From IMG/VR virus record IMGVR_UViG_2565956714_000008, positions 1-17,267 of that record: a DNA stretch of 17,267 nucleotides. The stretch is one strand, 5' to 3'. Below, in pieces: positions 2,291 through 17,267 of the stretch. The translations under genes were made by a program, and so were the position numbers. Every line of letters begins with the position of its first letter. The first letter of the stretch is position 1. The notes beneath the pieces were generated by a model that did not search any database, was not told the DNA's origin, and worked only from the letters and a program-made list of their open reading frames with translations. This stretch comes from a virus. Its lineage: Duplodnaviria; Heunggongvirae; Uroviricota; Caudoviricetes.

Positions 2291-2564
2291 CGCTGTTATT
2301 GCTGGGTAAGATCAAAAAACTTTCAGGCAGCTAAGGAAAGTTGAACCAGACATTAGATGAAATATTTCAACCAATTACAGCACCAATTCAGTCACTGCCA
2401 GCCCACCAAATAAATCAAGGGGTTACATGAAAACGTAGCCCCTTTTTCTTTGGTAGTGACACTAAAATGGATGTAGTGTGAAGAATAATCCCGTTTACTC
2501 AATCAATAATACATATTGTTTCAATCTACGTTATTATCTCTTTGTAAAAATTGCCATTTATTAA

Positions 2565-3356: not shown

Positions 3357-3455
3357 ACAGACATTTGGCGGCGTTTCTAAAATAACACTACGCGTACTAC
3401 TTGGCTTAAGTAAACCAACATGAAAATCACTTTTTCTTATATTATCGAAAAGGTT

Positions 3456-3938
3456 CTATTCATTTCTTTTAGCGCATTCAAAAAACTGATCGGCATTATT
3501 TTTATTCGATAATTTTTTAGTTTCAGAAAACACATTTTCATTGTTTTCCAGCTTTAGTTTAATGAGAAGATTTTCCCAGACCTGCTTGCTTAAACATATT
3601 ACGTCAGGCTCACCAGAACTAACTAACTCGTGATTATTATTAAAGTGTACGTTGAATACCTTTAAGTTATTTTCACCAACTTCATATTTAATACGTTTTA
3701 ATTGTTCTCCAGCTCCCATAATGACAAAGGCGTTGCCTTCTTGATATATACATTCAGACATCATTTTTTGTAAAGTTTCAAGAGCACCGCGATACGTCTC
3801 TGATGCAGCTTCCTTACAAATTAATTTTAAAATACTATGAGCTAGTAGCTCCATGTGTTTAGAAGATTTATTTTCATTATAACTTCCACTACCCAAAACT
3901 GCGCTAGCGTTAAATCCGTTGCTTTTACTAACTAACAT
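3456..3938 (-). CDS. Hypothetical protein, 160 aa, AT-rich
   Basis: Minus-strand ORF with GAGGA 7 nt upstream of ATG 3938; same strand as and 100 bp upstream of the 263-aa ORF (likely co-transcribed). No recognisable domain. Position corresponds to ypjC in K-12 gene order. Confidence 0.55.
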   Translation of the reverse strand: MLVSKSNGFNASAVLGSGSYNENKSSKHMELLAHSILKLICKEAASETYRGALETLQKMMSECIYQEGNAFVIMGAGEQLKRIKYEVGENNLKVFNVHFNNNHELVSSGEPDVICLSKQVWENLLIKLKLENNENVFSETKKLSNKNNADQFFECAKRNE

Positions 3939-4688
3939 TGTCTATTCCTCAATTAATGTCTACATGGCTATTTTTAATGTTATTACTGTTTGTCACTATA
4001 AAAAAACGCTCATTTGAGACAATTACTGACATTAACTGCTTCACTTGCTACGCATGGAACTTTTAATTAAATTAGCACAGGAATGTTAAATTTAATAAAC
4101 AAAAGGTTATTTCGCTGTATGATAAAAAAAACCGTTATAATTTATTAGTGAAAATCGTTTTTCAAGTGTTAGAAATTTATATCTCAATAGCGTTGGTTAA
4201 TGAGCATAGCCACGCTCCTGTAACGCTCACAAAACTCATCTGCCTGCGGCGGGTGTTCTGGTCAGTAGTAGATGTTTAAGGCGTGGCAGAGACATTTCAT
4301 CCTTACTCTACGGCATTGTTCTACATACATTGGTTGTGGTACTCACTTATCATCAGTGAGCGAACAGAGAATAGTTCAGTGATTTGAGTAATTAACCTGA
4401 TTAAATGAAGGGGTATAATAAATGATAATACTCTGGCTTTATCGTTAATTACTTAATTCCACATGTAAGCAATTTGCCCGCTTGGCATAGCAGGCATTTT
4501 TTCCAGGTACTTTTGAATGAGTACTGATGGATAAATACATTGCAGTGGCGTGCCACGTACCAAAACACCAGCCCTCATTCGAAACCACCCACCGCACTTC
4601 TTCCTTGAAATGGCGTTAGTCATGAAATATAGACCGCCATCGAGTACCCCTTGTACCCTTAACTCTTCCTGATACGTAAATAATGATT

Positions 4689-4733
4689 TGGTGGCCCTTG
4701 CTGGACTTGAACCAGCGACCAAGCGATTATGAG
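4689..4733 (-). repeat. att core copy: 45-nt duplicate of the tRNA-Ile2 3' end (acceptor/T-arm to anticodon loop), marking the left boundary of the integrated element
   Basis: tggtggcccttgctggacttgaaccagcgaccaagcgattatgag matches 15430-15474 at 44 of 45 positions (single C/T difference); the sequence diverges immediately after, and the region upstream in tRNA orientation is not tRNA-like. Confidence 0.85.
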
Positions 4734-4842
4734 TTGGTTGATAACCCTTTACTTACAGATACTTAGCGATACTTTTCAATACCTTAGCATTTTTTAAAAC
4801 TACTGTATAAATACCTGTATATACCCCAAAATACTTCTTTAC

Positions 4843-4890
4843 GGTATCCTATAGGTATCCTGGAGCAGAACAAGCGATTTTCCAGGATAC
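4843..4890. promoter_or_regulatory. Putative integrase arm-type binding sites (GGTATCCT direct repeats plus inverted copy)
   Basis: ggtatcctataggtatcctgg at 4843-4863 and inverted copy tccaggatac at 4881-4890; a near-identical block ggtatcctataagtatcctgg occurs at 15367-15387 beside the other att core. Function inferred. Confidence 0.4.
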
Positions 4891-4914
4891 CAGATCGCTT
4901 GGTGGGGTGTATGA

Positions 4915-6336
4915 GTGAAATTATTCAGATTCTCTAAAGTAAAAATTGCAGAACTGCCAACGCCGGAACATGGACAGGTCGAATATGGTGATACGGAGGT
5001 TAACGGGCTGCGTGTCCGTGTAGGTTCGTCTGGTGTGAAAAGTTTCTGCATTTCCCGTAAGCGTAACGGAAAATTTATTCGTGCAACGCTGGGGCGTTTT
5101 CCTGATCTGAGCGTGGATAATGCCAGGGCTAAAGCTATGGAACTCCTTGGCGAAGTCGCCACAACGGGGATAAATCCGAACATAGCAAAGCGCACTAACA
5201 ACAAGGCCATGATAACGCTGAGTGAGGCGATTGACGCCTACGTAAAAAATCGTGGCCACCGCCTGAAACCCTCCACAGAAAAACAGTACCGCAGCATATT
5301 ACAGAATTATTCCGGTGACTGGATGGCCCATACCCTCGCCAGTATTTCCCGCGAACGGGTGGAACAACGGCATAAGGCCATCACTGATGGGGCTGTATGG
5401 TTCGGTGCTGATAAAACCACGTTACGGGCTGGGGTTGGTACAGGAAGCAAGGCACAGGCCGATTTATGGGCGCGTGCGCTACGTGCTGTGTGTCGGTTTG
5501 CGCATGATCATTACCGTGATGATGCGGGTAATACTCTTTTACCGGATCCGCCGACTCTGGTACTGAGCACCAAGCGCCAGTGGCACGGAACGGTAAGAAA
5601 AACGGAACGTATCCGCCTGCATGATTTTCCCCGCTGGTTTGCTGCTGTAGCTGCTGTGCGCGACCAGGGCGAACAGGAAAGGGATGATATAGCTGTTACG
5701 GTATGTGATGCCGTGGAAATGGCACTGTTTACCGGACTGAGGAAATCAGAAGTTTTTGGCCTTACGTGGGATCGCGTGAATATGGGCGGTCGCTTTTTCT
5801 GGATAGACACCACGAAAAACGGGGATCCGCTTGAACTGCCGATCACTGATACGTTGCGGAAAATGTTTCTTCGCAGGCTAAAAAACAAAGCTGCTGATGA
5901 TGTGCTGGTGTTTCCTGGCGTGAAGGGAGTGATTCAGGAGACACGGCACATCATAGACCGGATAAGCGCGGCTACCATTCCTGAGGCGAACGATGAAATG
6001 CTCTTCCCTGTCCCGTTTAAGTGGCACGACGCACGCCGGACGTTCGGAACGGTTGCTGAGCTGGTGGGCGTGGGTAATTACATCCTCAAGCGCCTGATGA
6101 ATCACCGCACTATGCGAAGTGCCGACGTAACGCAGGGGTATTTACATTTCGGTGCTGATGAACTGCTGGAGCCAGCATCACGGATAGAACGGGCAATTCT
6201 GGAACATGCCGGGCTGGTGGAGAGTAAAAAATCTATCGATGCGCAATTACTTTCCGCACTGGAGGGCATGAGTGATGATGAAAAACGTCGTTTACTATTT
6301 GCTATAGTACAAGAAAAGAATGACATATATGGGTGA
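4915..6336 (+). CDS. int: Tyrosine recombinase / integrase, P4-like with N-terminal arm-binding domain
   Basis: 473-aa ORF starting GTG 4915. The N-terminus (LPTPEHGQVEYGDTEVNGLRVRVGSSGVKSFCISRKRNGKFIRATLGRFPDLSVDNARAKAMELLGEV) fits the arm-binding domain pattern of P4-family integrases; C-terminal region has catalytic-domain signatures (LFTGLRKSEV, HDARRTFGT, TQGYLHF). Lies 180 bp inside the att repeat. Confidence 0.9.
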   Translation: MKLFRFSKVKIAELPTPEHGQVEYGDTEVNGLRVRVGSSGVKSFCISRKRNGKFIRATLGRFPDLSVDNARAKAMELLGEVATTGINPNIAKRTNNKAMITLSEAIDAYVKNRGHRLKPSTEKQYRSILQNYSGDWMAHTLASISRERVEQRHKAITDGAVWFGADKTTLRAGVGTGSKAQADLWARALRAVCRFAHDHYRDDAGNTLLPDPPTLVLSTKRQWHGTVRKTERIRLHDFPRWFAAVAAVRDQGEQERDDIAVTVCDAVEMALFTGLRKSEVFGLTWDRVNMGGRFFWIDTTKNGDPLELPITDTLRKMFLRRLKNKAADDVLVFPGVKGVIQETRHIIDRISAATIPEANDEMLFPVPFKWHDARRTFGTVAELVGVGNYILKRLMNHRTMRSADVTQGYLHFGADELLEPASRIERAILEHAGLVESKKSIDAQLLSALEGMSDDEKRRLLFAIVQEKNDIYG

Positions 6337-7045
6337 TAACAATATATCGGTCAAACAATATATTATTTATTCGGTTATGAATGATTTAATTACTGGTGGG
6401 CGAGACTCTTCAGTTTTAAACGTTCCTGTATCTTTATCCCCGAAAAACTCCACCATAGAGGCTATAAAACGCTTGATTGATGATATAAGAGATTATTTTT
6501 ATAAATCAAAGTATCCAACAAGAGAATTTCTTTTGTGTTATGGTTTAGAATTAAGAGAAATCGAGCAATATCCTATTGAATTAGCTATAAGAATGGATTC
6601 ATGTGGTTTTTTAATATTTGATAGTAAACTATCTTGTCAGGTTGTCGATACTTTAAATTCAGCAGTTGCATTGTACCATGTCGGAATGCGTAATCACGCA
6701 GACAAACTTACTAGGGTTGGTGTTGAGTTATTGCTTAATGACTTTTTTGAAGAAATTATATCGAACCATGAAAAAGATAAAAAAATAAAAGATGCTTTAT
6801 CCTTATCACAGAAAGAAAAAGCGCGCAAACCAAGAAATCATTATTACAATGAAGTTATGCACGTAATTAAACTAACATGGGAAAAGTACCCTAAAGCCAG
6901 TAAAACAGGTTTATTGAACGAGCTTTCTGTTTACTATCATGGGAAAGTAAGTAAAAACACTCTGGATAAATGGATTAAAGAATCAGGAGCACAACCACCA
7001 AGACCTGATAAATATTCTTCGTTTGAACTTGTTCACCCCCAATAG
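6320..7045 (+). CDS. Hypothetical protein, 241 aa, markedly AT-rich cargo gene; possible HTH near C-terminus
   Basis: ORF overlaps the integrase stop by 17 nt (ATG 6320; alternative ATG 6329). Base composition is visibly more AT-rich than the flanking integrase and regulator genes. No recognisable catalytic motif; C-terminal KASKTGLLNELSVYYHGKVSKNTLDKWIKE looks HTH-like. Confidence 0.55.
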   Translation: MTYMGDNNISVKQYIIYSVMNDLITGGRDSSVLNVPVSLSPKNSTIEAIKRLIDDIRDYFYKSKYPTREFLLCYGLELREIEQYPIELAIRMDSCGFLIFDSKLSCQVVDTLNSAVALYHVGMRNHADKLTRVGVELLLNDFFEEIISNHEKDKKIKDALSLSQKEKARKPRNHYYNEVMHVIKLTWEKYPKASKTGLLNELSVYYHGKVSKNTLDKWIKESGAQPPRPDKYSSFELVHPQ

Positions 7046-7073
7046 CTGGCTAGTGTATCTTAATAGCTGGCTA
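7041..7073. repeat. Two direct repeats aatagctggcta spaced 21 bp, upstream of the Xis/AlpA-like gene
   Basis: aatagctggcta at 7041-7052 and 7062-7073; a partial third copy (ctggctatt) near 7110. Possible regulator binding sites. Confidence 0.3.
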
Positions 7074-7150
7074 TTAAGGCTAAATAACTGGTAACCTCCC
7101 CACAGCAACTGGCTATTGGGCTAAAAACAAAATACCCATTGATTGATATT

Positions 7151-7184
7151 TATCACCGTTGTTACTTAGAAGTACACGGTGATA
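7151..7184. promoter_or_regulatory. Inverted repeat TATCACCGT-N16-ACGGTGATA overlapping the ribosome-binding region of the downstream HTH gene; candidate operator
   Basis: Perfect 9-bp arms at 7151-7159 and 7176-7184. The half-site TATCACCG resembles lambda-type operator half-sites, although the spacing differs from lambda operators. Confidence 0.4.
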
Positions 7185-7187
7185 GAT

Positions 7188-7397
7188 ATGAATTTAAAGA
7201 AATCTGATTTATCAACTGACCGCCTTACACGTGCTGAAGCTGCTGCCTACCTTGGCGTTAACAATCAAACGCTGGCGAACTGGGCCTGTACTGGCAAGGT
7301 AAAAATCCCTTTCCATAAGCTGGGGCGCAAAGTGCTGTATATGCGCACTGATCTCGATGCTTATCTTGCATCCACTCGCAGAACGCAGACGGTGTAA
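7188..7397 (+). CDS. Xis/AlpA-superfamily helix-turn-helix DNA-binding protein (excisionase-like or induction regulator)
   Basis: 69 aa from ATG 7188 (track start GTG 7179). LTRAEAAAYLGVNNQTLANWACTGKVKIPFHKLGRKVLYMRTDLDAYL fits the excisionase-family HTH pattern (L..EAA.YLGVS..TL..W...G.IP..K.GR...Y...DLDAYL). Confidence 0.75.
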   Translation: MNLKKSDLSTDRLTRAEAAAYLGVNNQTLANWACTGKVKIPFHKLGRKVLYMRTDLDAYLASTRRTQTV

Positions 7398-7744
7398 GGG
7401 GGAGTGATGGCACATAAAACAAAGGCGACCGCAGAGGGCCGCCAGTGGCATAACACTAAACTTGAGCATATCCAGAATACCAGGTTGTTGGCTGGTGGGC
7501 AATGCTATCAGTCTGGCTCGATTCGCTGCCATGCCTGCAATGAGCGTATTTTCCTAGAATACTCTTTAAGGTACTTCTCAAGGATAAACGCACATGGTGC
7601 GAATCTCTCCGGTTCATGTTCGTTTACCGCATTTTTGCGTTGTTTTTTCTTGGATGAGGATAATTTCTTTAATGATTTGTCAGTCATCGTAGATACCTGT
7701 AACCCTGTGCGCCACAGTTCACCGCACCACGGCGCTGGTGATGG

Positions 7745-7870
7745 TTACTCCTGCTCTTTGGCCTTGCGCCGCTGGCGGCGTTTGATCTCATCAAGGATTT
7801 TTCTTGGTAAGAAGCCTGCTGGTTTATTCTCTGGTAGAGAAAGTTTGTTATCGGTCTGCTTTTCAGTCAT
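7745..7870 (-). CDS. Small basic protein, 41 aa, translationally coupled to the upstream RHH gene
   Basis: ATG at 7870 lies 3 nt after the RHH stop codon (ATGtaTGA arrangement); encodes MTEKQTDNKLSLPENKPAGFLPRKILDEIKRRQRRKAKEQE. Below the ORF-track length cut-off; a weak call. Confidence 0.25.
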   Translation of the reverse strand: MTEKQTDNKLSLPENKPAGFLPRKILDEIKRRQRRKAKEQE

Positions 7871-7873
7871 ACA

Positions 7874-8065
7874 TCAGCCTTTAGGTTCAATGCCGCGTCG
7901 CTTTAGTTCGGCACGAGCTAATTCTTTAAACCAATTGCCGAGGGTTAGGCCATCGGCGGTTGCTGCCTCGTTTACTTGCTGGCGTAGTTCTTTGCTAATT
8001 CGTATCTGGAATGTCGGCGACCATCCCTCGCCGCGTGGTGATTTATCCCGCTTTAATGTTGACAT
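7874..8065 (-). CDS. Ribbon-helix-helix (Arc/CopG-like) DNA-binding protein, candidate repressor
   Basis: 63 aa; ...FQIRISKELRQQVNEAATADGLTLGNWFKELARAEL has the beta-strand/helix/helix layout of RHH proteins. Its start codon is embedded in a perfect palindromic operator (8064-8109). Confidence 0.6.
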   Translation of the reverse strand: MSTLKRDKSPRGEGWSPTFQIRISKELRQQVNEAATADGLTLGNWFKELARAELKRRGIEPKG

Positions 8066-8109
8066 GTACGTACGTAACTCCTATTATCATCAATATTACG
8101 TACGTACAT
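8064..8109. promoter_or_regulatory. Palindromic operator: two copies of the self-complementary 10-mer TACGTACGTA within perfect 14-bp inverted arms, in the divergent promoter region
   Basis: atgtacgtacgtaa (8064-8077) and ttacgtacgtacat (8096-8109) are exact reverse complements, separated by 18 bp that include the RHH gene's AGGAG ribosome-binding site. Confidence 0.55.
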
Positions 8110-8133
8110 TAACAGTAAGTGCAACAAAAAACA

Positions 8134-8168
8134 AAGCCCCGCAAGTGTCGTTACCACTCGCAGGGCTT
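8134..8168 (-). terminator. Hairpin with 12 of 14 paired bases, followed by a U-run on the minus strand only
   Basis: aagccccgcaagtg / cactcgcagggctt with loop tcgttac; A-tract 8121-8133 gives UGUUUUUUGUU after the hairpin on the minus strand. On the plus strand it would sit in the 5' UTR of the replication operon. Function uncertain. Confidence 0.3.
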
Positions 8169-8204
8169 CTAACCACCAACGATAACGAGAGTATCGAGGT
8201 AGCT

Positions 8205-8408
8205 ATGAGAAATCATACCATACACCCGCAAGGGCGGGATTCGCACAACCTGAATAAATTCGCCTGGCGTTTTATCGCCCTGAGCGCCGCAAAACCGCGT
8301 GTGATTACCATCGTGGCCACCAGCGAACAGGAAGCACGCCAGCACTCCCCGGCTGGCTGCGTGATGGTATTCGCCGCCCGTATTCGTCAGGGGGTGTGCC
8401 ATGCCTGA
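8205..8408 (+). CDS. Hypothetical protein, 67 aa, first gene of the plus-strand operon leading to the replication gene
   Basis: ATG 8205 with GAGGT 5 nt upstream; codon usage on this strand is typical of E. coli coding DNA (ctg, gcc, acc, atc, cgt, ccg), unlike the overlapping antisense ORFs; stop overlaps the next start (8401). Confidence 0.45.
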   Translation: MRNHTIHPQGRDSHNLNKFAWRFIALSAAKPRVITIVATSEQEARQHSPAGCVMVFAARIRQGVCHA

Positions 8409-8721
8409 TATGTCAAATTACCAGTACCTGATTAATCCGCATTTTAACTGTGAGCATGATATTGCTAAAAAGGTTTATTCCGCTGCGGATGGGGCGACTG
8501 ACAATATATCAATGGCCGTTGCGTCAATTGGTAGCCTGATGTGGCATGCGTCAGAAAATGAGGACTATGACGAAAAGGCCATGCGCATTGATATGGGTAA
8601 TATCGGTTTGTTACTGGCAATGCTTGGACATTTTGATATTTCGTTACGGTGCACCATTGAAAATGCCACAGATGCATTAAATGCCATAAAGAAAGCGAAT
8701 ACTGATTCAAATCGGGGATAA
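8401..8721 (+). CDS. Hypothetical protein, 106 aa
   Basis: ATG 8401 with GGGGG 6 nt upstream; overlaps the preceding stop; no recognisable domain. Confidence 0.5.
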   Translation: MPDMSNYQYLINPHFNCEHDIAKKVYSAADGATDNISMAVASIGSLMWHASENEDYDEKAMRIDMGNIGLLLAMLGHFDISLRCTIENATDALNAIKKANTDSNRG

Positions 8722-8727
8722 ATAATC

Positions 8728-9027
8728 ATGAGAACGTATTTATCTGGCTTGACTGCCAGCGGTTATGCACATCCCAAAATTATCCCCGGCGCTATTTATC
8801 TGGATAAGAACGGTAACAGAGTAACGGTAAAAGAACTGATGTTTGACCGTGTGTATTTTATTCGTGATGGCTATTCATTTCATAGTTCGCTGAACGTGGA
8901 GATCTTTATTAGCAGATTCAGGCGGGAAATCCCGCTTTCCAGAAATAACCATGTGTCACGTGTGAATGTGGATAAAAAACTACAGGAACTGAAAAACATG
9001 ATTGCCGCGTGGAGAGAGCAGAAATGA
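8728..9027 (+). CDS. Hypothetical protein, 99 aa
   Basis: ATG 8728 (GGGGA 9 nt upstream); its stop overlaps the replication-gene start (ATGA at 9024-9027), indicating translational coupling. Confidence 0.5.
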   Translation: MRTYLSGLTASGYAHPKIIPGAIYLDKNGNRVTVKELMFDRVYFIRDGYSFHSSLNVEIFISRFRREIPLSRNNHVSRVNVDKKLQELKNMIAAWREQK

Positions 9028-10841
9028 AAAAAGCGCCAAATTTAAAACACCAGTCGCGTGACAAAATGACGGAAGTCATCATTTTTGCGGGTAGTGATGC
9101 GTGGGCACATGCGAAGCAGTGGCAGGAACAGGACGGGCGACTGGCTGGCGATAACGTGCCTCCTGTCTGGCTTGGAGAGCAACAACTTGCCGAACTGGAC
9201 AACCTGCAAATCGTACCGGACGGACGCTATCGCGTGCGTCTCTATCAGGCGGGGTTATTGCGTCCGGGGCTTGTTAATACCATCGGGCAGAAACTGGCAG
9301 CGGCAGGTGTCAGGGATGCTGATTATTATCCTGAAGGAATGCACAGCCAGAAACGGGAGAACTGGCGCGAATATCTGGAACGTGAACGGGCAGAGCAGGC
9401 GGAAAAGAAAAAGGTAGTTGAACTGCCTGTAAAGAAAAAAGAGCGGGTAAAAGACGATAACGCTTCATCACTGGCGCTTAACCAGATGGGAGCAAGTCAA
9501 CGCGGCGAAGTTCTCCTGGCACATTATGGCGGTGAATTGGCGATTCATGCTGACTCTGACACTGTTCACCATTACAACGGCGTTGTATGGGAGCCAGTAC
9601 AGGATAAAGAATTACAGCGAGCTATGGCACAGATTTTCATTGATGCGGAGATCAGCTATTCGCAGAACGCCATTAAATCGGCGGTCGATACCATGAAGTT
9701 AAGTTTGCCTGTAATGGGGAATACAGCCCGTAACCTGATTGGATTCAGTAACGGGGTATTTGATACCAGAACAGGTAATTTTCGGGGGCATAACAAAAAC
9801 GACTGGTTGTTAATTGCCAGTGAATTACCTTTCAGCCCACCAGCAGAGGGGGAAACACTGGCAACACATGCGCCGAATTTCTGGAAGTGGTTACGCCGTT
9901 CGGTGGCTGAGAATGACCGCAAGGCAGATCGCGTACTGGCGGCATTATTCATGGTGCTGGCGAACCGGTACGACTGGCAGTTATTCATTGAGGTAACAGG
10001 GCCGGGGGGAAGTGGTAAAAGCGTGATGGCGGAGATTTGCACCATGCTGGCGGGTAAGGCTAATACAGTATCAGCAAGCATGAAGGCGCTGGAAGATGCA
10101 AGGGAACGTGCGTTAGTGGTTGGCTTTTCGCTGATTATCATGCCGGATATGACCCGCTACGCTGGTGATGGGGCAGGGATTAAGGCCATTACAGGCGGTG
10201 ACAAGGTGGCAATTGACCCGAAACACAAAGCCCCCTACTCAACGCGTATTCCGGCAGTAGTGCTGGCGGTTAACAATAACGCCATGTCATTCAGTGACCG
10301 CAGCGGGGGGATCTCACGTCGTCGGGTGATATTCAATTTTTCGGAAGTTGTACCGGAGAACGAACGCGATCCGATGCTGGCGGAAAAAATAGAAGGTGAG
10401 CTGGCGGTAGTGATTCGCCATCTGCTTACACGGTTTGCTGACCAGGACGAAGCCAGACGCCTGTTATATGAGCAGCAGAAATCTGAAGAAGCACTGGCGA
10501 TAAAGCGAGAGGGGGATTCGCTGGTGGACTTCTGCGGCTATCTCATGGCGTCGGTAATGTGTGATGGCCTGTTAGTGGGTAATGCTGAAATTGTGCCATT
10601 CAGCCCGCGCAGGTATCTCTATCATGCCTATCTGGCTTATATGAGGGCTCATGGGTTTGGTAAACCTGTAACACTGACGCGCTTCGGTAAAGATATGCCT
10701 GGGGCAATGGCGGAATATGGCAGGGAGTATATAAAACGGAAAACGAAGCACGGTTTACGTTCAAACGTGACACTGACGGAGGAATCAGAAGACTGGATGC
10801 CATCATGTGTATCAGTCACTAATGACGATAGCAAAAATTAA
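9024..10841 (+). CDS. Replication initiator: primase/SF3-helicase-like P-loop NTPase (Pri-Rep type)
   Basis: 605 aa from ATG 9024 (GGAGAGAG 5 nt upstream; track start GTG 9009). Walker A VTGPGGSGKSVMAEIC and a downstream hydrophobic-acidic segment (LIIMPDM) as candidate Walker B, in the C-terminal half; immediately followed by an iteron cluster as in PICI/SaPI and P4-type replication modules. The N-terminal half has no motif I can assign. Confidence 0.8.
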   Translation: MKKAPNLKHQSRDKMTEVIIFAGSDAWAHAKQWQEQDGRLAGDNVPPVWLGEQQLAELDNLQIVPDGRYRVRLYQAGLLRPGLVNTIGQKLAAAGVRDADYYPEGMHSQKRENWREYLERERAEQAEKKKVVELPVKKKERVKDDNASSLALNQMGASQRGEVLLAHYGGELAIHADSDTVHHYNGVVWEPVQDKELQRAMAQIFIDAEISYSQNAIKSAVDTMKLSLPVMGNTARNLIGFSNGVFDTRTGNFRGHNKNDWLLIASELPFSPPAEGETLATHAPNFWKWLRRSVAENDRKADRVLAALFMVLANRYDWQLFIEVTGPGGSGKSVMAEICTMLAGKANTVSASMKALEDARERALVVGFSLIIMPDMTRYAGDGAGIKAITGGDKVAIDPKHKAPYSTRIPAVVLAVNNNAMSFSDRSGGISRRRVIFNFSEVVPENERDPMLAEKIEGELAVVIRHLLTRFADQDEARRLLYEQQKSEEALAIKREGDSLVDFCGYLMASVMCDGLLVGNAEIVPFSPRRYLYHAYLAYMRAHGFGKPVTLTRFGKDMPGAMAEYGREYIKRKTKHGLRSNVTLTEESEDWMPSCVSVTNDDSKN

Positions 10842-10853
10842 ACTTATGGAATA

Positions 10854-11085
10854 ACTGTTCACCACTGTTCACCCTGTCATAAATATCTTTTATATCAGTA
10901 TATTATAGGGTGAACAGTTATTTATGAACTATTCACCAAACTATTCACTGTTCACCTTTTTGGTTGTTTATTGAGCTTCAAGGGTGAACAGTGGTGAACA
11001 GTTGGTGAATAGTTTTTGTAAAACTGTTCACCCCTTAACAGTATGAATTTAAATGGAAAATATCAAAAGGTGAACAGGTGAAGGG
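10854..11085. repeat. Iteron-type replication origin: about 11 copies of ACTGTTCACC / GGTGAACAGT in both orientations within AT-rich spacers
   Basis: tgttcacc at 10856-10863, 10866-10873, 10949-10956, 11025-11032; variant tattcacc at 10930-10937; inverted ggtgaaca at 10909-10916, 10983-10990, 10993-11000, 11069-11076; variants ggtgaata at 11004-11011 and ggtgaagg at 11078-11085. Several copies are tandem with ~10-bp period. Confidence 0.7.
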
Positions 11086-11128
11086 TTAAAATACAAAAAT
11101 TTTAATTTATTGCTCTGAGATAAAGCCT

Positions 11129-11374
11129 ATGACAGCGAAGCGCACAAAAAAAACACAATCGCACGCCCTTGATTTGACGGAACACTGGTTAAGGGGGTCG
11201 ATAAAAATCATCGACCGCAACGCCGGGGAAGGATACGCGAAAGCACATCCCGAACTGATAAGCGCATTCATGACCACGGCGGCGGCAAATTTTGCCACGC
11301 TAACAGAGCGGGAGATTGCCGAAGCGGAACAGGTAACAACCATCAACGTTAAAACCGGAGAGCAGACAGCATGA
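11129..11374 (+). CDS. Hypothetical protein, 81 aa
   Basis: ATG 11129 with only a weak ribosome-binding site; stop overlaps the SSB start (ATGA at 11371-11374). No recognisable domain. Confidence 0.45.
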   Translation: MTAKRTKKTQSHALDLTEHWLRGSIKIIDRNAGEGYAKAHPELISAFMTTAAANFATLTEREIAEAEQVTTINVKTGEQTA

Positions 11375-11793
11375 CAGCACAGATAGCGGCTTACGGACGG
11401 CTGGTGGCTGACCCGCAGTTAAAGACCACTAGCAAGGGTACACAAATGACGATGGCTAGTATGGCGGTCCCCCTTCCGTGCAGCCAGGCAGATGACGGAA
11501 CGGCGACGATGTGGTTATCCGTCCTGGCGTTTGGCAGACAGGCCGACGCACTGGCAAAACACCACAAAGGCGAACTGGTGAGCGTGGCGGGTAACATGCA
11601 GGTAAGCCAGTGGACAGGCCAGAACGGCGAAACGCGGCAGGGCTGGCAGGTTATCGCAGACAGTGTAATCAGTGCCAGAACGGCGCGACCGGGCGGCAAA
11701 AAAGGTCAACAGGGCCAGGCTACTGACGCACTGAACAGGGCAAAACAACAGTCGGGGAATGATGATCCGTACGGCGATAATATACCGTTTTAA
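11371..11793 (+). CDS. ssb: Single-stranded DNA-binding protein (SSB) with acidic C-terminal tip
   Basis: 140 aa; OB-fold region WLSVLAFGRQADALAKHHKGELVSVAGNMQVSQWTGQNGETRQGWQVIAD parallels E. coli SSB ([51 protein letters not shown]); Gly/Gln-rich linker and C-terminal DDPYGDNIPF resembling the SSB tail DDDIPF. Confidence 0.8.
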   Translation: MTAQIAAYGRLVADPQLKTTSKGTQMTMASMAVPLPCSQADDGTATMWLSVLAFGRQADALAKHHKGELVSVAGNMQVSQWTGQNGETRQGWQVIADSVISARTARPGGKKGQQGQATDALNRAKQQSGNDDPYGDNIPF

Positions 11794-11803
11794 ATTCTGC
11801 AAA

Positions 11804-11839
11804 TAAAAAAATGCCGGAAGAAAATAGATTTTCCGGCAT
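11804..11839 (-). terminator. Stable hairpin (9-bp stem ATGCCGGAA/TTCCGGCAT) between ssb and the capsid gene, forming a canonical intrinsic terminator only in the minus orientation
   Basis: Stem 11811-11819 and 11831-11839, loop 11 nt; A-run 11804-11810 gives a U-run after the hairpin on the minus strand; no U-run follows it on the plus strand. Confidence 0.35.
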
Positions 11840-12010
11840 GCTACATAAATCCCGACCAAAGGAAGTAAATACATTAACACGAATTATCAGCACTGAAGTT
11901 GTCACGGCAGATTTTATACAACATTGCACTTGGTTGCATGTATTCGCATAGCAAATATCGGTGATAGCATATATCCACAATTATTTTTAATGAATGCAAA
12001 GAGGATGCGT

Positions 12011-13051
12011 ATGGTTGATTTATATTCGCCTGCCCAGCTTGTGCAGGTGGCTAATGCTGAAGATGTGCAAAAAAAATTAAATGTGTTGTTTACCAGTTTG
12101 TTTTTCACTCGCTCGGTAATGTTTGAATCGAGAGACATTATTCTTGATACGATCGACGATCCAAATATCCCGATCGCGGCGTTTTGCTCTCCTATGGTGG
12201 GCAGTAAAGTTTCACGAGATGAGGGATACGAATCAAAAACAATTCGCCCTGGCTATATGAAACCGAAAAGCAGCATTGATCCAAATAAGTTAGCTGTGCG
12301 CCCTGCTGGTGTGTCACCTGAGCAATACAATGCTTTTGGGGCGCGTAATATTAAAGTTAAACAGGCGATTGTAAATCAGGCTAAAGCTATTCGTACACGT
12401 ATTGAATGGCTTGCTGTTCAGGCAATCACAACGGGGAAAAATATCATTGAGGGCGATGGTATTGAACGTTATGAGCTGGACTGGAATATAAAACCACAAA
12501 ATATCATCACTCAGTCTGGCGGTACTGAGTGGTCAGGTAAGGATAAAGAAACTTTTGATCCAAATGATGATATTGAGAGCTACGCAGAATTTAGTGAGGG
12601 CGTCACTAATATCATCATTATGGGCGGTAATGTATGGAAGAAATACCGTTCATTCAGAGCGATAAAAGAGGCTCTGGATACCCGTCGTGGTTCTAATTCC
12701 GAACTGGAAACGGCCCTTAAAGACCTTGGTGATTCGGTGAGTTTTAAAGGGTATATGGGCGATGTTGCGATTGTTGTTTACAGCGGGCGTTATACCGACG
12801 AGGACGGAACTGAAAAATATTTCCTTGATCCTGATTTGATGGTGCTTGGCAATACGGCTCTCCAGGGGATTGTCGCTTATGGCGGTATTCAGGATCCGGA
12901 GCTAATCCGGATGGGGCTGACTAAAGCCGAACTTGCACCGAAAAACTATATTGTGCCTGGTGATCCGGCTATTGAATATGTGCAGACACATTCAGCACCA
13001 CAGCCAATACCGGCCCGTATCAATCGTTTTGTTACCGTTCGCATTGGCTAA
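12011..13051 (+). CDS. Major capsid protein, lambda gpE family
   Basis: 346 aa from ATG 12011 (AAAGAGGA, 5-nt spacer; track start 11924 is upstream in frame). Long colinear matches to lambda gpE as I recall it: ITQSGGTEWSGKDKETFDPNDDIESY vs ITQSGGTEWSKRDKSTYDPTDDIEAY; DTRRGSNSELETALKDLG vs DTRRGSNSELETAVKDLG; GDVAIVVYSGRY vs GDVAIVVYSGQY; MVLGNT in both. Confidence 0.9.
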   Translation: MVDLYSPAQLVQVANAEDVQKKLNVLFTSLFFTRSVMFESRDIILDTIDDPNIPIAAFCSPMVGSKVSRDEGYESKTIRPGYMKPKSSIDPNKLAVRPAGVSPEQYNAFGARNIKVKQAIVNQAKAIRTRIEWLAVQAITTGKNIIEGDGIERYELDWNIKPQNIITQSGGTEWSGKDKETFDPNDDIESYAEFSEGVTNIIIMGGNVWKKYRSFRAIKEALDTRRGSNSELETALKDLGDSVSFKGYMGDVAIVVYSGRYTDEDGTEKYFLDPDLMVLGNTALQGIVAYGGIQDPELIRMGLTKAELAPKNYIVPGDPAIEYVQTHSAPQPIPARINRFVTVRIG

Positions 13052-13061
13052 GGGGGGAGCA

Positions 13062-13403
13062 ATGGCTACTCATTACACTGAACTCATGGCTGGCACTGAA
13101 GCACTGGTTACTACGCTGGGGATATTTTCAGCTAATAAAGGGGTAATTCCTGCATTTACGCCACTGATGCAGGAAGATACAACAGGTGCACTGGTGGTAT
13201 GGGATGGTACGAGTGCAGGTAAAGCTGTTTATGTTTCCGCTGTACAACTCGATACAGCGAAAAAAACACAGGCTCAGGTCTATAAGACAGGTGTCTTAAA
13301 TGTTGATGCTCTTAACTGGCCTGAGTCAGTAAAAGAACTGTCAGTAAAGGTTGCAGCGTTTGTTGGCTCAGGTATTTCTGTTCAGCCGCTGGCTCGTGTG
13401 TAA
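13062..13403 (+). CDS. Head decoration protein, lambda gpD family
   Basis: 113 aa from ATG 13062 (GGGGGGAG upstream). IPAFTPLMQEDTTGALVVWDGTSAGKAV...KTGVLNVDALNWPE...AAFVGSGISV parallels lambda gpD [28 protein letters not shown]...KSGTFRYEDVLWPE...TAFAGTAISIV. Confidence 0.85.
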   Translation: MATHYTELMAGTEALVTTLGIFSANKGVIPAFTPLMQEDTTGALVVWDGTSAGKAVYVSAVQLDTAKKTQAQVYKTGVLNVDALNWPESVKELSVKVAAFVGSGISVQPLARV

Positions 13404-13414
13404 AGGGGGATACA

Positions 13415-13798
13415 ATGCAGAATCATTACAATGACCTTAAGCCAATTGCCGAAATGATGTATCCGGATCCAGCAGTAGAGGAATTAAAGGCTATTGCTGA
13501 CAAAATGCGTTTAAGCGAGCGTCTTGTTGATATGAATCAGGTGATGGAACTTACAACCCTGAGTCGTCGTACACTGCTAAACCTTGAAGCACGTGGAGAG
13601 TTCCCCGAACGCGTGCAGGTTACGGAAGGGCGTAAGGCCTGGTATTTAAGCGAAGTGATCGACTGGATAAACAATATTCCGCGCGCTTCTGAATATTGCC
13701 GCGTACCTGTCCCAAAAAAGCCAGATGCGGCGCTATGCCTCAAGATTGATCGTGTACGCCGCAATGCACGGGATGGTCGCTATAAGCTGATTGGTTGA
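13415..13798 (+). CDS. AlpA-family HTH protein with ~40-aa N-terminal extension, immediately upstream of cos
   Basis: 127 aa, ATG 13415 with GGGGGA 5 nt upstream. MELTTLSRRTLLNLEARGEFPERVQVTEGRKAWYLSEVIDWINN fits the AlpA pattern (T.LSR.T...L...G.FP.PV.LG.R...W...EV..WI). Confidence 0.7.
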   Translation: MQNHYNDLKPIAEMMYPDPAVEELKAIADKMRLSERLVDMNQVMELTTLSRRTLLNLEARGEFPERVQVTEGRKAWYLSEVIDWINNIPRASEYCRVPVPKKPDAALCLKIDRVRRNARDGRYKLIG

Positions 13799-13822
13799 TG
13801 AAATTAGGGCCCGTTCTGGCTG

Positions 13823-14020
13823 GCGGGTCCTTTCCGGCGATCCGGTAGGCTACGGGGCGTCAGGCGCGCGGGTTTTCGCTTTTTATGAAAATTTTCCGGT
13901 TTAAGGCGTTTCCGTTCTTCTTCGCCGTAACTTTATGTTTTTATTTGAAACACCCCCTGAAAAGAAAGGAAACGACAGGTGCTGAAAACGGGCTTTTTGG
14001 CCTCTGTCGTTTCCTTTCTC
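13823..14020 (+). other. Lambda-type cos site: cosQ-like segment, cosN-equivalent 12-mer (13855-13866, divergent) and cosB with R3, I1, R2 and R1 elements
   Basis: From 13867 onward the sequence (cgcgggttttcgctttttatgaaaattttccggtttaaggcgtttccgttcttcttcg ... ctgaaaagaaaggaaacgacaggtgctgaaaacgggctttttggcctctgtcgtttcctttctc) is nearly identical to my recollection of lambda left-end bases 13-170, including R3 cgtttccgttct (13907-13918), R2 agaaaggaaacg (13963-13974) and R1 cgtttcctttct (14008-14019). Upstream gcgggtcctttccggcgatccggtaggctacg parallels the lambda right end ACGGGTCCTTTCCGGTGATCCGACAGGTTACG. The 12-mer is GGGCGTCAGGCG here versus GGGCGGCGACCT in lambda. Confidence 0.8.
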
Positions 14021-14339
14021 GTTTTTGAGCAAAACTGGCTCTATACATGCTTAGAAATGCTAGGGTTTTTGCGTAATACAGGTAGTGCAGGAGATTCACC
14101 AGGGGATTATTCATATATGCTGGTAGGCGCTATGTGTTAGTGGTGAGCGAAAAACAATCAAAACCGACACCGTAAAAATAAAAATCACAAATTATCAATT
14201 AGTTGTGCCAGTGGTGATGGCGAATGAAATTTCAAAAACTAGCCTTTTTCCGCGATGCTTTCGCCCCGTGGCAGGCCACCCCACCAGGAGGACCCGCTAC
14301 AATTACGGTATCAACCTCATCACTATGGAGGCCATGACC

Positions 14340-14624
14340 ATGACCGAGACCGAAGCGCTCGAAATAATCCGCAGTATTACCGGAATCAGCCAGGCAACAG
14401 GCAAACAGGAGGCCACGCAGCCGGACAGCGTCACCGCTGAAAATTACGCGCGTGTGGTGGCTGAGGTGATGCGCCGTGACGGTATTGAGCTTAACGGCGT
14501 GGATATGCGCAACATACGAACCAGAGTCCTTGAGTTGCTGGCATACCGTCGCCGTTCTCAACAACGGAGGGAGAGCGCGAAAAATACTTACCAGTGGAAG
14601 AAGCCGGAACGACTGCGGTGGTAA
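14340..14624 (+). CDS. Hypothetical protein, 95 aa, in the position lambda Nu1 occupies relative to cosB but unrelated to Nu1
   Basis: Best-supported start ATG 14340 (GGAGG with 8-nt spacer); in-frame alternatives at 14205 (GTG), 14217, 14325 and 14334. Arg-rich C-terminus; no recognisable domain. Confidence 0.45.
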   Translation: MTETEALEIIRSITGISQATGKQEATQPDSVTAENYARVVAEVMRRDGIELNGVDMRNIRTRVLELLAYRRRSQQRRESAKNTYQWKKPERLRW

Positions 14625-14642
14625 CTTGCTGATATTCCCGAT

Positions 14643-14890
14643 AACGCAAAATTGCGTTGGCTGGTGGGTGAGTTGCAGATCTGCAACTCGACCATGAAAC
14701 TACGGAAACTACCCGTAGTTTGGGTAGTAAGAGTAACACCCAGATTTTGGGGCTTACTCGCGATACCCAAATAAAGGGTATCGGTGGAAGAAATATCGTT
14801 TCTCATATGTGAGTACCGAGGGCGGAATTCCGCCTTCGGTTACTTATTGTGCTCATGCACAGGGAGAGGCGGGTACAAATCTCTGTACCC
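14643..14890. repeat. Cluster of six inverted repeats/palindromes in a ~250-bp non-coding stretch
   Basis: AACGCAA-aa-TTGCGTT (14643-14658); perfect 20-bp palindrome GAGTTGCAGATCTGCAACTC (14670-14689); AAACTACGG/CCGTAGTTT (14697-14721) overlapping ACTACCC/GGGTAGT (14708-14728); GATACCC/GGGTATC (14762-14782); GGCGGAATTCCGCC (14821-14834); GGGTACA/TGTACCC (14871-14890). Confidence 0.45.
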
Positions 14891-15033
14891 TGACGTCTTC
14901 CGGACTGCCAGCCCCATCGTTTTTTTACGCCCGCGAAAAATAAAAATTGTTTGTATGTGAGTATTGTAGCCAGCAAAAGCTCTTTCTTTAGTGGCTTATT
15001 GTTTCTAATAGATTTTGGGAGGTAGAAATGGGA

Positions 15034-15053
15034 GGCCCAGCGAAAGCTGGGCC
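15034..15053 (-). terminator. GC hairpin with GAAA tetraloop (GGCCCAGC-gaaa-GCTGGGCC) just downstream of the small minus-strand ORF
   Basis: 8-bp perfect stem; on the minus strand it follows the stop at 15072 and is followed by a C/U-rich tract (UCCCAUUUCU), so not a textbook U-run. Confidence 0.3.
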
Positions 15054-15071
15054 GAGCTTGTTACGCTGTCA

Positions 15072-15215
15072 TTACTTCAGCATGATAACTAAAGCTATAC
15101 ATACTAGCACTACGGCTATTGGGCATAGACCTAAATTGCCAAGTGCTGCGATTAAACCTGTAACGGCAATCACACGTGCAGACAGCAGGTCTGAGCCCTT
15201 TCTTAAAGTATCCAT
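15072..15215 (-). CDS. Small hydrophobic protein, 47 aa, with a predicted C-terminal transmembrane helix
   Basis: ATG at 15215 preceded by GGAGG with 5-nt spacer; encodes MDTLRKGSDLLSARVIAVTGLIAALGNLGLCPIAVVLVCIALVIMLK. Below the ORF-track length cut-off. It is antisense to the 100-aa plus-strand ORF 15028-15330, which also has a strong ribosome-binding site, so the call is uncertain. Confidence 0.35.
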   Translation of the reverse strand: MDTLRKGSDLLSARVIAVTGLIAALGNLGLCPIAVVLVCIALVIMLK

Positions 15216-15366
15216 TGATACCTCCGTCAGGGTTTTTGCCGGTCTCTTGGAGAGTTGGGGGCAAAAGTTCAGACCCGTAGCACTTTCTTGTTCGCAGGTG
15301 AACGGCTGCTACGACCCAACTGTTCTGTAGGCATGAGCCAATTCTTACTTGTTAATACTTCTCAGA

Positions 15367-15387
15367 GGTATCCTATAAGTATCCTGG
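15367..15387. promoter_or_regulatory. Putative integrase arm-type sites (second copy of the GGTATCCT repeat block)
   Basis: ggtatcctataagtatcctgg, 43 bp from the tRNA/att core; near-identical to 4843-4863 at the other end of the element. Confidence 0.4.
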
Positions 15388-15429
15388 TAAAGCAAGATAG
15401 TTTGGATACATCTGTAATTCATTGAAATC

Positions 15430-15505
15430 TGGTGGCCCCTGCTGGACTTGAACCAGCGACCAAGCGATTATGAGTCGCCTGCTCTAACCACTGAGCTAAA
15501 GGGCC
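15430..15505 (-). tRNA. ileY: tRNA-Ile2 (anticodon CAU, lysidine-type; anticodon-only tools would call tRNA-Met)
   Basis: Reverse complement of 15430-15505 is a 76-nt tRNA: GGCCCTTTAGCTCAGTGGTTAGAGCAGGCGACTCATAATCGCTTGGTCGCTGGTTCAAGTCCAGCAGGGGCCACCA, with 7-bp acceptor stem (one G-U pair), anticodon loop CUCAUAA and encoded CCA. It matches my memory of E. coli ileX/ileY and differs from elongator and initiator tRNA-Met. ileY chosen from the flanking gene order. Confidence 0.9.
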
Positions 15506-16064
15506 TTGAGTGTGCAATAACAATACTTATAAACCACGCAATAAACATGATGATCATATGATGTAAATAACAGATTTTTATGCGTTCCCATTCACCTTGG
15601 GTCGTGATTACACGCGACATAAAACCCGACACCGCCTCCATTCGCAAAGTCGATACTCGCAGTCAACAAGCAAATGTTAATAATTAGCACTATCTATAGT
15701 TATCATCGATTCAATGATACTTTGTAATGATTTTGTATCTAATAATATAACTTTATTACATTAGCTGAAGAGTTTTCGCATCATTATGATATCTGTTACT
15801 TTTCACTCCATAAAAATAAACTTCGTATAGCAATATATTCTTTCATAGATCTTATTCTGCTAATCATTAGTTTCGTATGAGCGATTTTTGACAGTTGCCT
15901 CTCCAGACCACATCGATAATTAATAAAACAGATTTAAGCATTATCCTTTTCCATATAAATATTGGATAAAAGTAGGACATCTGTTTGCAATTACTTTCAC
16001 AACAATTAAACATTTTTATGTTTCCGTATACATCATATTACTCTACCATTAGAGGAACTTTATT

Positions 16065-17267
16065 ATGTTTTCTATAAAACCAGGACCCAGAAATTTACCT
16101 ATCGACAACCCCACATTGTTATCATGGAACATTACTGACGGGGATCTAAATTCCAAATTAAATACATTAGAATATCTAAACTGTATAACAAATATTATTA
16201 ATTCTTGTGGAGTTTACCCTCAAGGATTAAAAGACAGAGAAATTATATCAACTTTTCACGCAGAAAAAGTTATTAATGATCTGTTAAAAAACGATTATAA
16301 AATTTCCCTTTCTCCAGATACAACTTACCGAGAGTTGAATAAAGCAGCACAGCGTAGCATTACAGCGCCAGACAGGATAGGAGAAAGAAAAACATAGGTT
16401 TATCAACGAGATACAATGATTGAAAGAGGTGATAACAGCGGTGTTTATCAGTATGGTCGTGCTGAACATTTCACCCACATTATATCTGACAAACCTTCCC
16501 CAAAAGATAAATATGTTGCATATGCTATTAACATTCCTGACTATGAGCTGGCAGCCGATGTATATAATATTAACGTGACGTCACCTTCCGGACAGCAAGA
16601 AACATTTAAAATATTAATCAATCCAGAACATCTACGGCAAACACTTGAGCGTAAATCTCTTACTGCTGTTCAGAAATCACAATGTGAAATCATCACCCCC
16701 AAAAAACCTGGCGAAGCGATTCTTCATGCTTTTAATGCCACCTACCAGCAGATCAGAGAAAATATGTCTGAATTTGCACGTTGCCATTATGGGTATATAC
16801 AAATCCCTCCAGTGACAACTTTCCGTGCCGACGGACCAGAAACTCCCGAAGAAGAAAAAGGTTACTGGTTTCACGCTTATCAACCCGAAGATCTTTGTAC
16901 CATCCACAATCCAATGGGAGATTTGCAGGATTTTATCGCATTGGTTAAAGATGCTAAAAAATTTGGTATCGATATCATTCCTGATTATACCTTTAACTTT
17001 ATGGGAATCGGGGGTAGTGGTAAAAATGACCTGGATTATCCCTCTGCTGATATACGAGCGAAGATCAGTAAAGATATAGAAAGTGGTATCCCTGGCTATT
17101 GGCAAGGTCAGGTTTTGATTCCATTTACTATAGATCCAGTAACAAAAGAACGTAAACAAATCCATCCAGAAGATATACATCTCACTGCAAAAGACTTCGA
17201 AGCAAGTAAAGATAATATTTCTAAGGATGAATGGGAAAACCTCCATGCATTAAAAGAAATCGTTTAA
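16065..17267 (+). pseudogene. ygaQ: Alpha-amylase family (GH13-like) gene interrupted by a single in-frame amber codon
   Basis: ORFs 16065-16397 and 16416-17267 are in the same frame, separated only by TAG at 16395-16397 plus six sense codons. The downstream part carries amylase-like motifs (GYIQIPPVTT..., GYWFHAYQPEDLCTIHNPMGDLQDFIALVKDAKKFGIDIIPDYTFNFMG, compare G.TA.Q.SP..., W.RYQP..Y.L.TR.G..DEF..MV..C...GV.IYVD.V.NHM). Symbol from locus memory (ygaQ is next to ileY in K-12 and annotated as a pseudogene); amylase assignment is motif-level only. The gene ends exactly at the window end. Confidence 0.5.

Follow-up and report, generated by a model that had tools for sequence, protein, structure and literature searches.

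Lambda-like putative capsid and decoration genes in a satellite island of Escherichia coli

Capsid genes are a common possession among phage-inducible chromosomal islands (PICIs) of Gram-negative bacteria (GN-PICIs): 21 of the 29 reference islands carry one, and it is dispensable for transfer (PMC10111431). For the island EcCICFT073, c1499 was described as a putative capsid protein, and c1500 as a head decoration protein, by Fillol-Salom et al. 2018 (PMC6092414). The DNA packaged by this island was all phage-sized, which rules out capsid size redirection there (PMC6092414; phage-sized also in PMC6739421), and when the genes that follow its replication origin (post-ori) were expressed singly from a plasmid by Fillol-Salom et al. 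2019 (PMC6739421), only c1503 (RppA) cut lambda plaquing. In Dokland's review (PMC6893505), normal-size capsids likewise go with the EcCICFT073 capsid homologue; PmCI172, which also encodes a capsid homologue, has small capsids (PMC6092414). PICIs have further been proposed to capture, and later to lose, late genes (PMC10111431). On the function of PICI capsid and decoration genes, we found in the literature only the 2018 knock-outs and a 2023 statement of dispensability. Here we analyse such a pair in a 17,267-nt stretch of DNA (IMG/VR record IMGVR_UViG_2565956714_000008, positions 1 to 17,267; hereafter the window), a segment of Escherichia coli chromosome with one island of 10,741 bp. The two genes, at 12011-13403, are the lambda-like capsid and decoration genes of this satellite island, with a putative part in capsid assembly.

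The capsid product matches Pfam Phage_cap_E (PF03864) over positions 5-327 of the 329 in the profile (7.8e-41, 140.6 bits, cutoff 22.9) and PHROG 29 'major head protein' (1.9e-88), and BLASTP aligns it end to end with lambda gpE, at 43% identity over 348 columns (E=3e-87). Its best match in the PDB is 3BQW, a 'putative capsid protein of prophage' (E=1.6e-121); lambda gpE (7VI9) matches at 1.9e-77. The decoration product belongs to Pfam HDPD (PF02924; 1.9e-15, 57.4 bits, cutoff 29.1) and, in PHROG, to family 49 'head decoration' (2.1e-26). Lambda gpD aligns with it over 78 aa at 40% identity (E=2e-17), the N-terminal third being left unaligned, and its best PDB matches are the phage 21 protein SHP (1TD0) and gpD (7VII). 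A preliminary description of the window, made from the letters alone, had proposed colinear but diverged homology to gpE and gpD, and these matches, above the Pfam threshold for both proteins, bear it out. It had also pointed to an order opposite to that of lambda. Indeed, the island has E and then D with 10 nt between them, and lambda has D (5747-6079) and then E (6135-7160). The outer coordinates of the pair were correct as well, and the sole correction concerns the start of the decoration gene, which is the ATG at 13062, as in the annotation of relatives. A scan of 10800-15400 for promoters and terminators found fewer promoter-like sites than in shuffled sequences, and none upstream of the capsid gene.

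Which satellite does this pair belong to? Profile and sequence comparisons with lambda gpE and gpD and with the capsid proteins of described E. coli PICIs, of the kind that the preliminary description had proposed, confirmed the families and gave Eco567.11capE (hereafter 11capE) and EcCICFT073 as the closest described relatives. We have hardly any doubt that the two genes form the late-zone capsid and decoration genes of a classical Gram-negative PICI of the EcCICFT073/11capE family, 10.74 kb long, inserted in a tRNA gene and parasitising lambda-type cos phages. The assignment to classical Gram-negative PICIs follows from the identity with 11capE (98% for the capsid and 96% for the decoration protein) together with the homology and synteny with EcCICFT073. 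11capE is a helper-embedded PICI of E. coli NRG857c (PMC10111431), and its module pri-hyp-SSB-E-D-HTH (SSB, single-strand DNA-binding protein; HTH, helix-turn-helix) is the same as in the window. But 11capE lies inside the helper capsid gene E and has another integrase, whereas the window island occupies a chromosomal tRNA gene with non-phage flanks and is not helper-embedded. Its integrase is common to only 2 of 93 loci scanned in a viral collection.

EcCICFT073 also has E and then D after the replication module and before cos, together with int, an alpA-type regulator, pri and a lambda-type helper. Its order is capsid, decoration, small open reading frame (ORF), cos, Rpp and a 93-aa ORF. Compared with the window, c1499 is 55% identical, c1500 54% and the last ORF 69%, and the sequence of c1499 is identical to PDB chain 3BQW_A (strain CFT073). 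The two islands differ in allele lineage and in attachment site. The ORF after D encodes a 137-aa, weakly scaffold-like protein in EcCICFT073 but an AlpA-like HTH protein in the window, and EcCICFT073 combines a non-lambda cosB with RppA (PMC6739421), whereas the window has lambda cosB and neither Rpp nor a small terminase. Thus the RppA found in some classical PICIs has no homologue in the window, which has a lambda-type cosB instead. The other sequence hallmarks of the class are all present: a size within 10-20 kb, att repeats, a terminal integrase, an alpA-type regulator, a primase/replicase and a post-ori packaging module homologous and syntenic with that of EcCICFT073, the cosQ/cosN segment being common to both. 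The preliminary description was right to see a 10.7-kb satellite with its own cos, since 10,741 bp separate the 49-nt repeats and a lambda-type cos lies at 13824-14027. Its view that the pair fits no known satellite type has to be given up: this is the standard late zone of classical GN-PICIs, seen in EcCICFT073 (c1499/c1500), in 21 of the 29 reference islands and, at 98% and 96% identity, in 11capE.

Other satellites resemble the island in part. The strategies listed in the preliminary description left out size redirection by Ccm of SaPIbov5, as cited in 10.1101/2022.09.08.507074. Ccm is a satellite homologue of the helper's major capsid protein in an island without portal, protease or large terminase and with a helper-type cos, and the window island too encodes a homologue of its helper's capsid protein (43% to lambda-type E). 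But Ccm is cited there as steering assembly towards small capsids and so blocking the helper, and the pair of EcCICFT073 tested negative for both; the Ccm sequence is also unrelated to the window's and has no decoration partner. Capsid-forming PICIs (cf-PICIs) such as EcCIEDL933 share the backbone of int, alpA and rep and an island-encoded capsid protein, but they bring their own capsid, protease, portal, head-tail connectors, HNH and small and large terminases, and make their own small capsids (10.1101/2022.09.08.507074). Lambda gpE and gpD and phage 21 SHP are members of the same families, full-length and colinear (43% and 40% identity), but the window genes are reversed in order, detached from Nu1-A-W-B-C-Nu3 and part of a satellite-restricted lineage. 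The Psu protein of P4 is a satellite-supplied decoration protein that stabilises capsids, in which the D of the window would be like it, but Psu is unrelated in sequence and decorates helper P2 shells, and P4 has no capsid gene. P4-type Sid, Psu and delta were not among the Pfam and PHROG matches of the island ORFs, a search that included no dedicated Sid/Psu profile.

Phages do not seem to hold close versions of the pair. Among 50,697 phage records, the best capsid identity to the window is 42.4% and the best decoration identity about 40%. In a large protein database, capsid homologues run continuously from 99% to 52% identity, and the phage gpE group then follows at 44% or below. The homologues at 52-99% come from E. 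coli, Cedecea, Scandinavium, Serratia, Edwardsiella, Salmonella and Lelliottia. All 10 members whose context was checked lie in islands, after the replicase, with E and then D, an order seen in islands of Serratia, Edwardsiella, Lelliottia, Cedecea, Salmonella and E. coli. These 10 context-verified satellite capsid proteins cluster apart from four phage E proteins and are 40-47% identical to lambda E. By these comparisons, the pair is a member of a satellite-restricted, E-then-D lineage that spans Enterobacterales and is new in this analysis.

The pair is also well kept. Among 5,426 complete E. coli genomes, 395 (~7%) have it with a coverage of at least 80%. In the loci of the viral collection, the ORFs of all full-length copies are intact (86 of 88 loci for the capsid gene, 86 of 87 for the decoration gene), the rest being shorter matches. 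The ratio of nonsynonymous to synonymous substitution rates (dN/dS) is 0.069 for island E and 0.116 for island D, next to 0.05 for the island primase and 0.08 for the island SSB. For the helpers' E and D at the same loci, dN/dS is 0.12 and 0.19, both above the island counterparts. Purifying selection therefore constrains the pair no less than it does E and D of the helpers, a result that is new here, and low dN/dS together with intact ORFs argues that the pair is functional and not a relic. A separate observation concerns an ENA scaffold (sample ERZ28600228; locus L112, 2801-3829) with a hybrid capsid gene, made of a lambda E front and an island E rear. Codons 1 to ~227 are practically lambda E (99% nt identity) and the remainder is the island capsid gene (98% nt identity), the crossover falling in the sole 17-nt exact match between both genes, CTGGATACCCGTCGTGG. 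Lambda-type portal, protease and D genes lie upstream, and island D and HTH genes downstream. As it was seen on this single metagenome scaffold, the hybrid may have arisen by natural recombination or be a chimera made during assembly.

The preliminary description saw no portal, protease, scaffold or terminase gene, and for this copy that holds. Lambda Nu1, A, W, B, C, FI and FII, the small terminase of a PICI, RppA and the S49 protease of an island, used as tblastn queries, had no match in the window at E<0.01, and Pfam and PHROG scans of the remaining island ORFs were empty for portal, protease, scaffold and terminase. The same tblastn and hidden Markov model scans show that the portal, protease, connectors and small and large terminases of a cf-PICI are not in the window. 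Pseudogene remnants of Nu1, A, B and C were also looked for in the window, and none was found.

The preliminary description had added that portal, protease and terminase genes, if routine in intact relatives, would mark this copy as a decayed cf-PICI or prophage. In the viral collection, 93 loci were scanned and 88 have the pair, with capsid proteins 97-99% identical. No portal, protease or large terminase lies inside any island of these close relatives, and only a small terminase, Nu1-like, is frequent (54 of the 93 loci). The gene order pri-ssb-E-D-HTH-cos-(TerS)-94aa, TerS being the small terminase, is invariant wherever the genes were detected in these loci. Twelve more distant islands were compared as well (EcCICFT073 and 11 distant relatives). 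In two of them the gene directly after D is an S49 protease/scaffold gene, and three have a Nu1 homologue. The relatives thus bear out the stated condition only in part: the protease turns up in some distant islands, and portal and large terminase never accompany the pair in the islands examined. The S49 and post-D ORFs are located at L009 10409-11752, L109 10418-11659, L005 2083-2496 and L107 10411-10836. In the EcCICFT073 lineage, the ORF after D (137-141 aa) has a weak resemblance to the scaffold portion at the C-terminus of head maturation proteases (PHROG 53, ~1e-8). We do not claim c1501 of EcCICFT073 as a Nu3-like scaffold: it matches the C-terminus of PHROG 53 at 1e-8 and the C-terminus of an island S49 protein at E=0.001 by BLASTP, and lambda Nu3 is unmatched.

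One relative shows what can replace the pair. The island of E. coli GF4 (L111) has the same attachment site as the window island and a shared backbone that is 98.5% identical, and at 9034-12180 the place of E, D, HTH and cos is taken by a prohead protease/capsid fusion of 637 aa together with a small terminase of the DUF1441 type. Its last ORF (PHROG 1561) is still the same. This swap of E-D-cos for the fusion and another small terminase indicates that capsid type and packaging type change together.

The packaging signal of the window is close to that of lambda: cos is 91% identical over 206 bp, with R3, I1, R2 and R1 conserved. The 12-nt cohesive end (13859-13870) is GGGCGTCAGGCG against GGGCGGCGACCT in lambda, 5 of 12 positions being different. 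The GGGCGTCAGGCG variant is present in 17 viral contigs, including lambdoid contigs in which nu1 comes next; the cohesive end of phage PhiR46_1 is a further variant, GGGCGGAAGGCG. Between relatives, this part is exchanged as a clean cassette (window 13902-14118 against L002 10312-11002). This swappable cos cassette, on otherwise homologous islands, was compared at window 13824-14118, L002 10312-11002 and L005 2500-2670. It comes in four forms: lambda cosB alone (window, KC-Dl-1), a different cosB with a 180-aa small terminase 37% identical to Nu1 (F1053 type), a non-lambda cosB with RppA (EcCICFT073), and lambda cosB with a Nu1 72% identical to lambda's (e.g. L012, L049). Because the window copy has neither Rpp nor a small terminase, direct recognition by the terminase of a lambda-type helper is to be expected. 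Four copies of 10.74 kb make 43 kb, ~89% of the lambda genome, which falls inside the lambda packaging range. This four-copy total matches the concatemer packaging reported for EcCICFT073.

The relatives also tell about helpers. Fifty-eight of the 88 close relatives lie inside lambda-like head operons and are co-oriented with them, and the proteins of the embedding helpers are 95-100% identical to lambda's, except at two loci with 53-67%. Together with cos, these embedded relatives point to probable lambda-type helpers for the window island. The near-identical embedded copies are inserted in gene E or in portal/protease genes (IMG/VR loci L029-L104; L007; L110; L113). A Salmonella relative (L106) is found within a contractile-tail gene cluster, and defence-like cargo adjoins the module in two islands, HEPN/DUF262 in NRG857c (11capE) and a TIR protein in Cedecea.

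How would such a pair work? The overall best explanation, which seems to us quite plausible while falling short of probable, is an assembly-competent shell and cement pair that works on the helper's lambda-type assembly line and is redundant in the laboratory. Upon helper-triggered induction, the unidirectional operon would express an HK97-fold shell subunit and a matched trimeric cement protein. These would join the helper's lambda-type head assembly, to which the helper would give portal gpB, protease/scaffold gpC/Nu3 and terminase. The outcome would be full-size heads, in which island concatemers of about four copies (43 kb) would be packaged from the island's lambda-type cos. The contribution of the island would be limited to the two head proteins of highest copy number, by which it would supplement the shell supply or offer an alternative to it. 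Next to a wild-type lambda helper, as used in the laboratory, this supply would be redundant, and the benefit would come when the helper shell protein is limiting, interrupted or mismatched. That the heads are full-size, and the supply redundant with a healthy lambda helper, is a possible mechanism that we propose tentatively. We infer shell supply from a conserved, constrained and matched pair, from lambda-type helpers, from the covariation of capsid and terminase, and from the occasional scaffold/protease in islands that never have portal or large terminase. Moreover, cementing expanded, DNA-filled shells is the only known role of decoration proteins, and D has diverged together with E, which argues that island E ends in real capsids. 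The pair is not a demonstrated size-redirection device.

Several observations weigh against this shell supply. Deletion of c1499 or c1500 in EcCICFT073 left lambda interference and transfer by resident prophages unchanged (PMC6092414), so no phenotype backs any role. Furthermore, the published EcCICFT073 experiments concern an allele at 55% identity to the window's, and a place of island E and D in particles is predicted from the genes. The scan of 10800-15400 detected no promoter or regulatory signal for the pair. One and the same island E allele (99% identical) is found next to helper E, B and C that match lambda's at 100% or at only 53-67% identity (L037, L104), which makes specific contacts with helper scaffold or portal less obvious. 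Finally, islands inserted in a helper portal or protease gene bear no portal or protease copy. For this reason, a back-up of the interrupted helper gene, which we considered, cannot be the general explanation.

Could the island instead make its own small heads? The island capsid protein, alone or with helper gpE, would then drive small T=4-like capsids for a single 10.7-kb genome, a possibility that we judge unlikely. An island of 10,741 bp with its own cos has a size typical of small-capsid satellites, there are precedents in the Ccm capsid homologue of SaPIbov5 in Staphylococcus (as cited in 10.1101/2022.09.08.507074) and in PmCI172 (PMC6092414), and strong purifying selection implies that the pair does something. 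The preliminary description had argued along these lines from genome size, but EcCICFT073 with lambda packaged only phage-sized DNA (PMC6092414; PMC6739421), and the c1499 and c1500 deletions neither relieved interference nor lowered transfer (PMC6092414). Genome size itself does not call for a small shell, as the lambda head holds four island copies (4 x 10.74 kb = 43 kb). Lambda requires gpD only for nearly full heads, so that the matched D points to dense filling of shells of any size, not specifically of small ones. Small capsids are still conceivable for the lineage of the window, at 55% identity to EcCICFT073, or with other helpers.

It is also improbable, in our view, that the E/D lineage, together with the S49 protease/scaffold where islands have one, uses helper portals to build shells specific to the island, either small T=4-like ones with particular helpers or full-size ones made of island protein. 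If true, the island would form capsids by a 'shell-only' strategy, midway from classical PICIs to cf-PICIs, and helper E and D could have masked its effect in the EcCICFT073 experiments.

A role outside the particle, for example as a decoy or trigger of host defences that sense capsids, or in the regulation of the helper's late functions, would agree with knock-outs in which no structural phenotype was found (PMC6092414) and with the defence cargo next to the module (HEPN/DUF262 in 11capE, the TIR protein in Cedecea). We consider it quite unlikely: full-length conservation of a 346-aa HK97-fold protein with a matched decoration partner exceeds what a decoy epitope needs, capsid type co-varies with terminase type, and the idea is speculative.

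Interference with the helper, with island E and/or D as poison subunits that spoil helper capsid assembly, is very unlikely. At 40-43% identity to the helper shell proteins, mixed defective assemblies would be allowed, and classical PICIs do interfere with their helpers (PMC6092414). But c1503 (RppA) was the only singly expressed post-ori gene of EcCICFT073 to lower lambda plaquing (PMC6739421), and interference persisted when c1499 or c1500 was deleted (PMC6092414). In addition, many relatives live inside a helper prophage, where capsid poisoning would block their own spread.

Decay is the weakest account, in which the pair would be the functionless leftover of a captured helper head module or of a degraded cf-PICI or prophage: the window has no other head genes, some relatives have extra ones (S49 protease, small terminase), capture and then loss of late genes has been proposed for PICIs (PMC10111431) and the deletions had no phenotype (PMC6092414), but it is extremely unlikely given dN/dS of 0.07 and 0.12, ORFs intact in 86/88 and 86/87 loci, constraint above that on the helpers' E and D, a lineage kept across at least seven genera down to 52% identity and always E then D, no phage donor found above 42% identity, the presence of the pair in 395 of 5,426 complete E. 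coli genomes, and an island otherwise complete (att repeats, int, pri, cos). The data thus disfavour decay, and the depth of the lineage gives no hint that the selection signal stems from recent clonal spread.

The layout of the island is given in Table 1. It is bounded by a 49-nt direct repeat (4686-4734 and 15427-15475, 96% identical, at a spacing of 10,741 bp), and the + strand carries every assigned island gene, in a unidirectional order.

Table 1. Coordinates of the island features in the window
Feature	Position	Strand	Evidence
attL, 49-nt copy of the 3' half of the tRNA gene	4686..4734		direct repeat family D1
tyrosine integrase	4915..6336	+	PHROG 1 integrase 9.3e-40; integrase in relatives' annotation; adjoins attL
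AlpA-position helix-turn-helix regulator	7179..7397	+	Pfam HTH_17 1.4e-11; PHROG 66 excisionase/regulator
DUF4222 protein	8728..9027	+	PF13973 7e-17; directly upstream of replicase, position kept in related islands
primase/helicase (pri-rep), D5-type	9009..10841	+	D5_N, DUF5906 and Pox_D5 domains; PHROG 864 DNA primase 5.6e-191
small ORF	11129..11374	+	
single-strand DNA-binding protein (SSB)	11371..11793	+	PF00436 4.3e-16
gpE-family major capsid protein (putative), 346 aa	12011..13051	+	Pfam, PHROG, BLASTP and PDB matches
gpD/SHP-family head decoration protein (putative), 113 aa	13062..13403	+	Pfam, PHROG, BLASTP and PDB matches
AlpA-like HTH protein, 127 aa, between decoration gene and cos	13415..13798	+	PF05930 1.4e-08; PHROG 2790 1.8e-48; PDB 8C3T AlpA 1.6e-10
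lambda-type cos site, cosQ/cosN/cosB with R3-I1-R2-R1	13824..14027	+	91% identity to lambda cos junction over 206 bp
conserved 94-aa ORF, last of the island	14340..14624	+	PHROG 1561 6e-49; 69% identical to EcCICFT073 last ORF
attR in intact tRNA gene	15427..15505	-	ARAGORN, anticodon CAT; repeat D1; tRNA-Ile per RefSeq annotation of relatives

The AlpA-like ORF that separates the decoration gene from cos is kept there in 88 of the 93 loci of the viral collection, and islands of Serratia, Cedecea and Salmonella have it at this place too. Purifying selection acts on it (dN/dS 0.06), and its product could be regulatory or cos-related. An Rpp role was considered for it and rejected, as its PDB match is only to AlpA (8C3T), with none to Rpp structures, and it has no similarity to c1501 of EcCICFT073. 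The last ORF of the island, compared with the PDB, also matched no Rpp structure.

Further upstream, 7400-8400 is the part of the island least conserved relative to its closest relative. A 334-aa ORF with a GTG start at 7404-8408 looks spurious, and small antisense ORFs match an Arc-like repressor PHROG (7874-8065, - strand) and PHROG 4106 (8169-8402, - strand). The matching region of relatives is annotated with YlcI/YnfO and Icd-like genes. The flanks of the window (1-4680 and 15510-17267) have a G+C content of 0.33-0.40 and resemble other horizontally acquired DNA. On the left are a transposase-like fragment (1-378), a repeat-rich 489-aa ORF (313-1782, - strand) and low-GC ORFs at 2565-3356 and 3456-3938, and the right flank is the counterpart of a glycosyl hydrolase pseudogene annotated in a relative.

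The gene pair was thus already known in E. coli islands of this type, and both the novelty and the small-capsid interpretation first attached to it are largely superseded by published work. In fact, the value as a discovery is limited, because E. coli PICI capsid and decoration genes have been published since 2018, with one crystal structure and with knock-outs that had no phenotype. What stands out is that the pair persists across Enterobacterales, in E. coli in ~7% of the complete genomes, and that selection on it is as strong as that on phage capsid genes. If a satellite shell protein were shown in transducing particles, this would refine the view of how PICIs exploit lambda-like phages, and a shell contribution by the satellite would be relevant to the engineering of PICI-based delivery particles.

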